A stretch of 64,000 bases of DNA. Origin: Escherichia coli. GTDB taxonomy: Bacteria > Pseudomonadota > Gammaproteobacteria > Enterobacterales > Enterobacteriaceae. Of this stretch, positions 41,868-42,085 are shown piece after piece. The DNA is taken from assembly GCF_003334815.1 (NCBI RefSeq), contig NZ_QOWO01000002.1; one strand, written 5' to 3'. The notes below the pieces were generated by a model, which worked only from the letters and a program-made list of their open reading frames with translations, made no database searches and was not told the DNA's origin. A program made the position numbers and the translations under genes. Positions within the stretch are counted from its first letter, which is position 1. Every line of letters starts with the position of its first letter.

Positions 41868-41889
41868 AATCAATCCAGCCCCTGTGAGT

Positions 41890-41909
41890 TACTGTATGGA
41901 TGTACAGTA
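41890..41909 (-). promoter_or_regulatory. LexA operator (SOS box) of sulA
   Basis: tactgtatggatgtacagta: perfect CTGT-N8-ACAG palindrome 23 nt upstream of the sulA ATG. Confidence 0.9.
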
Positions 41910-42085
41910 CATCCAGTGACAACAAAGATCAACCCTATTTTCGGAAAGAGCCTCGCAAATTTTGTCGTTGGTGACGGGAAAACATAAATTAATCTTGCCC
42001 CTTAAGAATAAGTTGCCTATTTTCGTAGTTAACGGATCCGTTAATGTGAATCATTCTTTTATGTTATGATTTTAAAAGGAATTTT

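Follow-up and report, generated by a model that had tools for sequence, protein, structure and literature searches.

The perfect palindrome in the spacer between the divergent Escherichia coli genes sulA and sxy very probably serves the sulA promoter as its one LexA operator, with an action confined to sulA, sxy having a separate promoter module of its own. Within the window (that is, the whole 64,000-nucleotide stretch analysed here), this LexA box contains the −10 hexamer of sulA and covers positions −12 to +8 relative to the published sulA transcription start site (TSS), thus overlapping the core promoter. A LexA dimer sitting on the operator bars RNA polymerase from the sulA promoter; upon DNA damage, RecA-stimulated self-cleavage of LexA leads to derepression of sulA, whose product blocks FtsZ ring formation until it is degraded by Lon. 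Both LexA binding at this box and derepression on DNA damage are established in the literature. The neighbouring sxy, in turn, would be driven from its own promoter by cAMP-CRP together with Sxy via a CRP-S site centred at −81.5, and the two genes would have the spacer in common, not the operator, because the LexA box at −141 to −122 of the sxy TSS lies outside the sxy module.

The local gene order, as given by the list of open reading frames and the RefSeq annotation, is matP, ompA (minus strand), sulA (minus), sxy (plus), and yccS (minus). Positions 41300–42800 of the window are an exact match to E. coli K-12 MG1655 (adding 979052 to a window position yields that in NC_000913.3) and, at an identity of at least 90 %, have a match in each of the 5,426 complete E. 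coli genomes. The two genes and the region between them are:

41358–41867, minus strand: sulA coding sequence, 169 aa, SOS cell-division inhibitor (open reading frame list and RefSeq annotation of the identical sequence, product name 'SOS-induced cell division inhibitor').
42086–42715, plus strand: sxy (tfoX) coding sequence, 209 aa (open reading frame list and RefSeq; Pfam TfoX_N/TfoX_C on homologues).
41868–42085: spacer of 218 bp between the sulA ATG (41867, minus strand) and the sxy ATG (42086).

Some further observations concern the locus as such. The genes sxy and yccS are convergent, and their 3' ends overlap by 38 bp (42678–42715). At 41879–41882, the sulA leader reads CCCC in the window, MG1655, and E2865 and CCC in all other aligned taxa, which accounts for spacers of 218 as opposed to 217 bp. 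Known RNA families yielded just two sub-threshold chance matches between 41000 and 43000. A mini-ORF overlapping the sxy ATG in E. coli (ATGATTTTAAAAGGAATTTTATGA, 42066–42089, MILKGIL*) was discarded, as its frame is not preserved in Citrobacter or Lelliottia. A 210-aa JGI protein (P0021), 97 % identical to Sxy, matches Pfam models of SulA as well as of TfoX and probably reflects an artefact of gene calling or assembly that spans the spacer. A generic promoter/terminator scan overlooked both real promoters of the spacer, those of sulA and sxy, and was set aside.

On the sulA side, the spacer holds the following elements, with TSS positions in NC_000913.2 transferred to the window via the offset 978275:

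41890–41909, no strand: LexA operator (SOS box) of sulA, TACTGTATGGATGTACAGTA, recognized from its sequence as the sole match to the LexA consensus in the window and from its conserved core.
41904–41909, minus strand: sulA −10 hexamer TACTGT in the reverse-strand reading, within the LexA box, ending 7 nt upstream of the published TSS.
41927–41932, minus strand: sulA −35 hexamer TTGATC (contains GATC), separated from the −10 hexamer by a 17-bp spacer.
41897, minus strand: sulA TSS (A) with a 30-nt leader (Kim et al. 2012, supplementary TSS table, NC_000913.2 1020172, 42 reads).

The sequence-only reading had placed a CTGT-N8-ACAG palindrome at 41890–41909, 23 nt from the sulA ATG, and it is found exactly there as the LexA box of sulA: 22 nt lie between box and ATG, so that the distance from the box edge to the A is 23. 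Read on the minus strand, the box is TACTGTACATCCATACAGTA, the first six bases of which are the sulA −10 hexamer. Its arms, TACTGTA and TACAGTA, form a perfect 7-bp inverted repeat around a central TGGATG that is not palindromic, and 17 of its 20 positions agree with the consensus TACTGTATATATATACAGTA. The start site on which these positions depend is taken from the supplementary table of Kim et al. 2012, whose printed upstream sequence agrees with the window (PMC3415461); in addition, Mendoza-Vargas 2009 listed a single sulA read, located at −23 and 5 nt away from the known sulAp.

A chance occurrence of the palindrome without any function is a reading that we give practically no credence. 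It can draw on the shortness of the minimal motif, as CTGT-N8-ACAG is expected 0.62 times per window, occurs once, and turned up at least once in 49 of 100 shuffles; by itself, this motif is not beyond chance. The full 20-mer behaves differently, since a sequence with at most three mismatches to the LexA consensus is present once in the window and was never obtained in the 100 shuffles. Moreover, 27 genomes have unchanged arms that keep a fixed position over the sulA −10, in contrast to the freely varying spacer sequence on either side. Given the shuffling result for the 20-mer and the conservation of the core at a fixed place in these genomes, the site is real and selected, and conservation refutes chance. 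The palindrome is the classical, already known SOS box of sulA.

Several side observations relate to the sulA promoter. The −35 hexamer includes a Dam site (GATC, 41927–41930), which 26 of the 27 genomes retain. A 2026 preprint on BL21 delta-sodA delta-sodB described an unplanned SNP, A to G at (−42/−177) of sulA/sxy, and termed it neutral (PMC13370989). It maps to 41909, the outermost base of the LexA box, and changes the sulA −10 from TACTGT to CACTGT. Because this base is the first T of the −10 hexamer and BL21 is devoid of Lon, the SNP looks to us like a suppressor that weakens the sulA promoter and was selected for by chronic oxidative and SOS stress. Furthermore, a promoter-like element (GTGAGA-18-CATAAT, 41409–41438, plus strand) resides in the 3' end of sulA, facing the LexA box and sxy, and might be the origin of the antisense transcript across sulA that Conway et al. 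2014 reported for stationary phase along with sulA-ompA read-through. Finally, RcdA has been found to bind in vitro in or near the sulA/sxy spacer, with sulA mRNA being unaffected.

The sequence-only reading had also assigned the sxy promoter to this 218-bp spacer, and published data bear this out, with a TTGCCC-17-TATTTT promoter and a start at 42031. The elements on this side are:

41995–42000, plus strand: sxy −35 hexamer TTGCCC (Shimada et al. 2014; invariant block ATCTTGCC).
42018–42023, plus strand: sxy −10 hexamer TATTTT (Shimada et al. 2014; conserved block AAGTTGCCTATTTTC), ending 7 nt upstream of the TSS.
42031, plus strand: sxy TSS (A) with a 55-nt leader (Kim et al. 2012, supplementary TSS table, NC_000913.2 1020306, 124 reads).
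41939–41960, plus strand: CRP-S site of sxy, a 22-mer with half-sites within 41942–41957, identified by the published half-sites TGCGA/TTCCG, geometry, and conservation.
42030–42043, no strand: 14-bp perfect palindrome TAACGGATCCGTTA at −1 to +13 of sxy, containing GATC.

Promoter and start of sxy had been predicted from conserved blocks before the published TSS was found, and both agree with it. As for sulA, the upstream sequence in the table of Kim et al. 2012 agrees with the window (PMC3415461). Shimada et al. 2014 gave the same promoter and furthermore observed an RNA polymerase sigma-70 SELEX peak in the spacer that was flagged H-NS (PMC3946193). Upstream of this promoter, TGCGA-GGCTCT-TTCCG at 41957–41942, with half-sites 6 bp apart, is the published CRP-S site of Psxy, which according to Sondberg et al. 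2019 pairs a promoter-proximal half that is conserved (TGCGA) with a distal one (TTCCG), both of which are needed for Sxy-dependent induction (PMC6728893). Measured from the sxy TSS, the site extends from −92 to −71 and its centre at −81.5 corresponds to a class-I-like position; measured from the sulA TSS, it occupies −63 to −42 with its centre at −52.5. A second TGCGA-N6-TTCCG at 48341–48356 falls within the csgI coding sequence and was dismissed as a chance match.

Two other features of this side deserve mention. In E. coli NH-21 (NZ_CP148034.1), an IS1 element is inserted in the CRP-S site (776 bp including the 8-bp target duplication AAAGAGCC); the insertion point corresponds to window positions 41945–41952 and splits the distal CGGAA from the proximal TCGCA. 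Judging from this arrangement, NH-21 should be a natural mutant in which Sxy auto-activation is lost. The palindrome at 42030–42043 is placed like an operator; its left half TAACGGATC is nearly invariant in Enterobacteriaceae, its right half degenerate in Citrobacter.

With both starts in place, the geometry of the spacer can be read directly. The two TSSs are 134 bp apart, and the LexA box is centred at −131.5 of sxy. Between the box and the sxy −35 hexamer (−36 to −31) there is a gap of 82 bp (41910–41991), and the CRP-S site, 29 bp from the box, stands between the box and the sxy promoter. Hence, the LexA box neither overlaps nor adjoins the sxy core promoter or the CRP-S site, and a second LexA-like site is absent from 41800–42150, where the next best 20-mer has 9 mismatches in 20 positions and half of the core. 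We infer from this geometry that LexA would have no effect on sxy.

Divergent genes sharing a LexA operator occur elsewhere, as in the case of uvrA/ssb. This E. coli pair resembles sulA/sxy in that its genes diverge from a spacer with just one LexA box, and one might accordingly imagine that LexA directly represses or activates sxy from a shared divergent operator. The common spacer is all that speaks for such direct control, which we regard as very improbable. In a shared-operator pair, the box lies in or next to both core promoters, whereas here it covers that of sulA only and is separated from sxy by the distances given above, with an activator site in between; nor is there a second LexA-like site that would allow for looping. 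The idea of the sequence-only reading that SOS and competence control might be coupled through this operator consequently finds no support, and positioning the sxy start relative to the box, as had been proposed, puts the sxy promoter well away from the operator. Likewise, the literature searched (sxy/yccR combined with sulA, LexA, SOS response, or DNA damage) yielded no report that E. coli sxy is controlled by LexA or the SOS response, nor did a search for papers that mention both sxy and sulA.

The same arrangement recurs across Enterobacterales. A scan of one genome per species yielded 20 usable loci (Escherichia, Citrobacter, Intestinirhabdus, Enterobacter, a Raoultella-labelled MAG, and Lelliottia), to which Salmonella and E. 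fergusonii were added by exact-protein look-ups and, as distant homologues from a representative search, Tatumella (Erwiniaceae), Chimaeribacter (Yersiniaceae), Providencia (Morganellaceae), and Edwardsiella (Hafniaceae). In all loci of the scan as well as in Salmonella and E. fergusonii, sulA and sxy are divergent with a spacer of 216–218 bp, and the four distant genera have the arrangement of E. coli. For K. pneumoniae, the orthologue table of Kim et al. (PMC3415461) indicates that the synteny of sulA (minus) and sxy (plus) is kept. The 27 genomes compared, which represent five families, share the succession LexA box, 17 bp, −35, 6 bp, CRP-S: the CTGT-N8-ACAG core has a constant position with respect to the sulA −10 and −35 in all 27, the −35 appears as GATCAA in 26 (TATCAA in Providencia), the TCGCA of CRP-S is invariant, and the gap between box and CRP-S measures 29 bp in all but Tatumella (28 bp). 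Other intervals vary, namely from 17 to 22 bp between the sulA ATG and the box and from 124 to 143 bp between CRP-S and the sxy ATG.

Phylogenetic footprinting accordingly resolves the spacer into discrete conserved blocks with freely varying sequence between them. Those on the sulA side are the sulA leader with the LexA box, AAAGATCAAC (sulA −35), and TTTTCGGAAA-N5-TCGCA (CRP-S); those on the sxy side are ATCTTGCC (−35), AAGTTGCCTATTTTC (−10), TAACGGATC at the start, and TATGATTT together with the ribosome-binding site. Enterobacteriaceae bacterium ESL0689 and Plesiomonas shigelloides have neither sulA nor a LexA box in the 670–790 bp between ompA and sxy, and tblastn detected no trace of sulA. 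Upstream of sxy, ESL0689 retains TTTCTGAATGCACTTCGCAAAA as a CRP-S site along with a TATTTT that resembles a −10 hexamer, while Plesiomonas has only a TGCGA-containing candidate site. That one lineage lacking sulA keeps CRP-S upstream of sxy suggests, at the sequence level, that the sxy module is self-sufficient and works without the LexA operator. Beyond Enterobacterales, neither tfoX next to sulA nor a recurrent linkage of sxy to SOS genes was seen in a Vibrio, in Frischella, or in a cluster of 218-aa homologues. In H. influenzae, tfoX presumably adjoins recA, to which we gave no weight.

The proteins themselves differ in pace, with Sxy diverging much faster than the neighbouring SulA: identities are 58 % (Sxy) versus 73–76 % (SulA) in Lelliottia and 69–73 % versus 85–88 % in Citrobacter, and even the Sxy of E. 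fergusonii is just 69 % identical to that of E. coli.

A subtler connection would not require LexA to touch sxy at all. In every Enterobacterales family examined, the CRP-S site is at the same time the upstream region (−63 to −42) of the sulA promoter. Cleavage of LexA could thereby load RNA polymerase onto sulAp and alter CRP-Sxy binding and, with it, sxy auto-activation, either because the upstream contacts of the polymerase (about −40 to −60) overlap CRP-S or because divergent transcription adds negative supercoils; conversely, CRP-Sxy at −52.5 of sulA would modulate sulA. We consider such promoter interplay unlikely, though less so than direct control by LexA. It is compatible with the position of the CRP-S 22-mer, with the small distance between the TSSs, and with the gap of 29 bp from box to CRP-S that all but one of the 27 genomes share across five families. 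This fixed distance, at first sight the most suggestive point, had to be abandoned as evidence for coupling: the sulA promoter itself accounts for 23 of the 29 bp (17-bp spacer plus −35 hexamer), leaving about 6 bp free, and the one indel in these (Tatumella) is no fewer than the variation of the other intervals (17–22 and 124–143 bp) predicts, so that the spacing gives no evidence of constraint. Expression data add that sxy and sulA are both on multi-stress lists of up-regulated genes. In the underlying meta-analysis, sulA was up in all five stress types and sxy, ppdD, hokD, and higA in at least three, ppdD being a gene of the CRP-S regulon and hokD and higA being Sxy-induced; the co-listing of sulA and sxy is a non-specific correlation only. 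Against the interplay stand the lineage without sulA and LexA box that keeps CRP-S (ESL0689), the lack of any report of such an effect in the literature searched, and, according to a review, H. influenzae arrays in which SOS genes were not induced by Sxy.

A further route runs through proteolysis. SulA is a classical Lon substrate. Sxy is likewise degraded by Lon, as stated in a paper that cites Jaskolska and Gerdes 2015. There is a slight chance that LexA gates sxy auto-induction indirectly via the polymerase at sulAp, that CRP-Sxy tunes sulA, or that SulA stabilizes Sxy by competing for Lon.

As to novelty, the sulA SOS box, the sxy promoter, its start, and its CRP-S site have all been published before. 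The box is the same element as the E. coli sulA (sfiA) SOS box, a 20-bp CTGT-N8-ACAG sequence over the −10 and the start site, with no difference. Few LexA operators are tighter than this one, and sulA serves as a standard reporter of the SOS response. In the same way, the sxy promoter is the CRP-S-dependent, positively autoregulated one described earlier (Jaskolska and Gerdes 2015; Sondberg et al. 2019), with the same half-sites and a conserved promoter-proximal half; it does not differ from the published promoter, and our analysis adds only coordinate bookkeeping (−81.5 for sxy, −52.5 for sulA). As a discovery, the finding carries little weight, the sulA SOS box being among the best-known bacterial operators. 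Its value lies in a clean map of two control modules that stand side by side and do not overlap at the LexA box. This removes the simplest idea of SOS–competence coupling and narrows the remaining one to the overlap of CRP-S with the upstream region of the sulA promoter or to competition for Lon. If true, either promoter interplay or Lon competition would tie the SOS response to the competence regulon without a shared operator.
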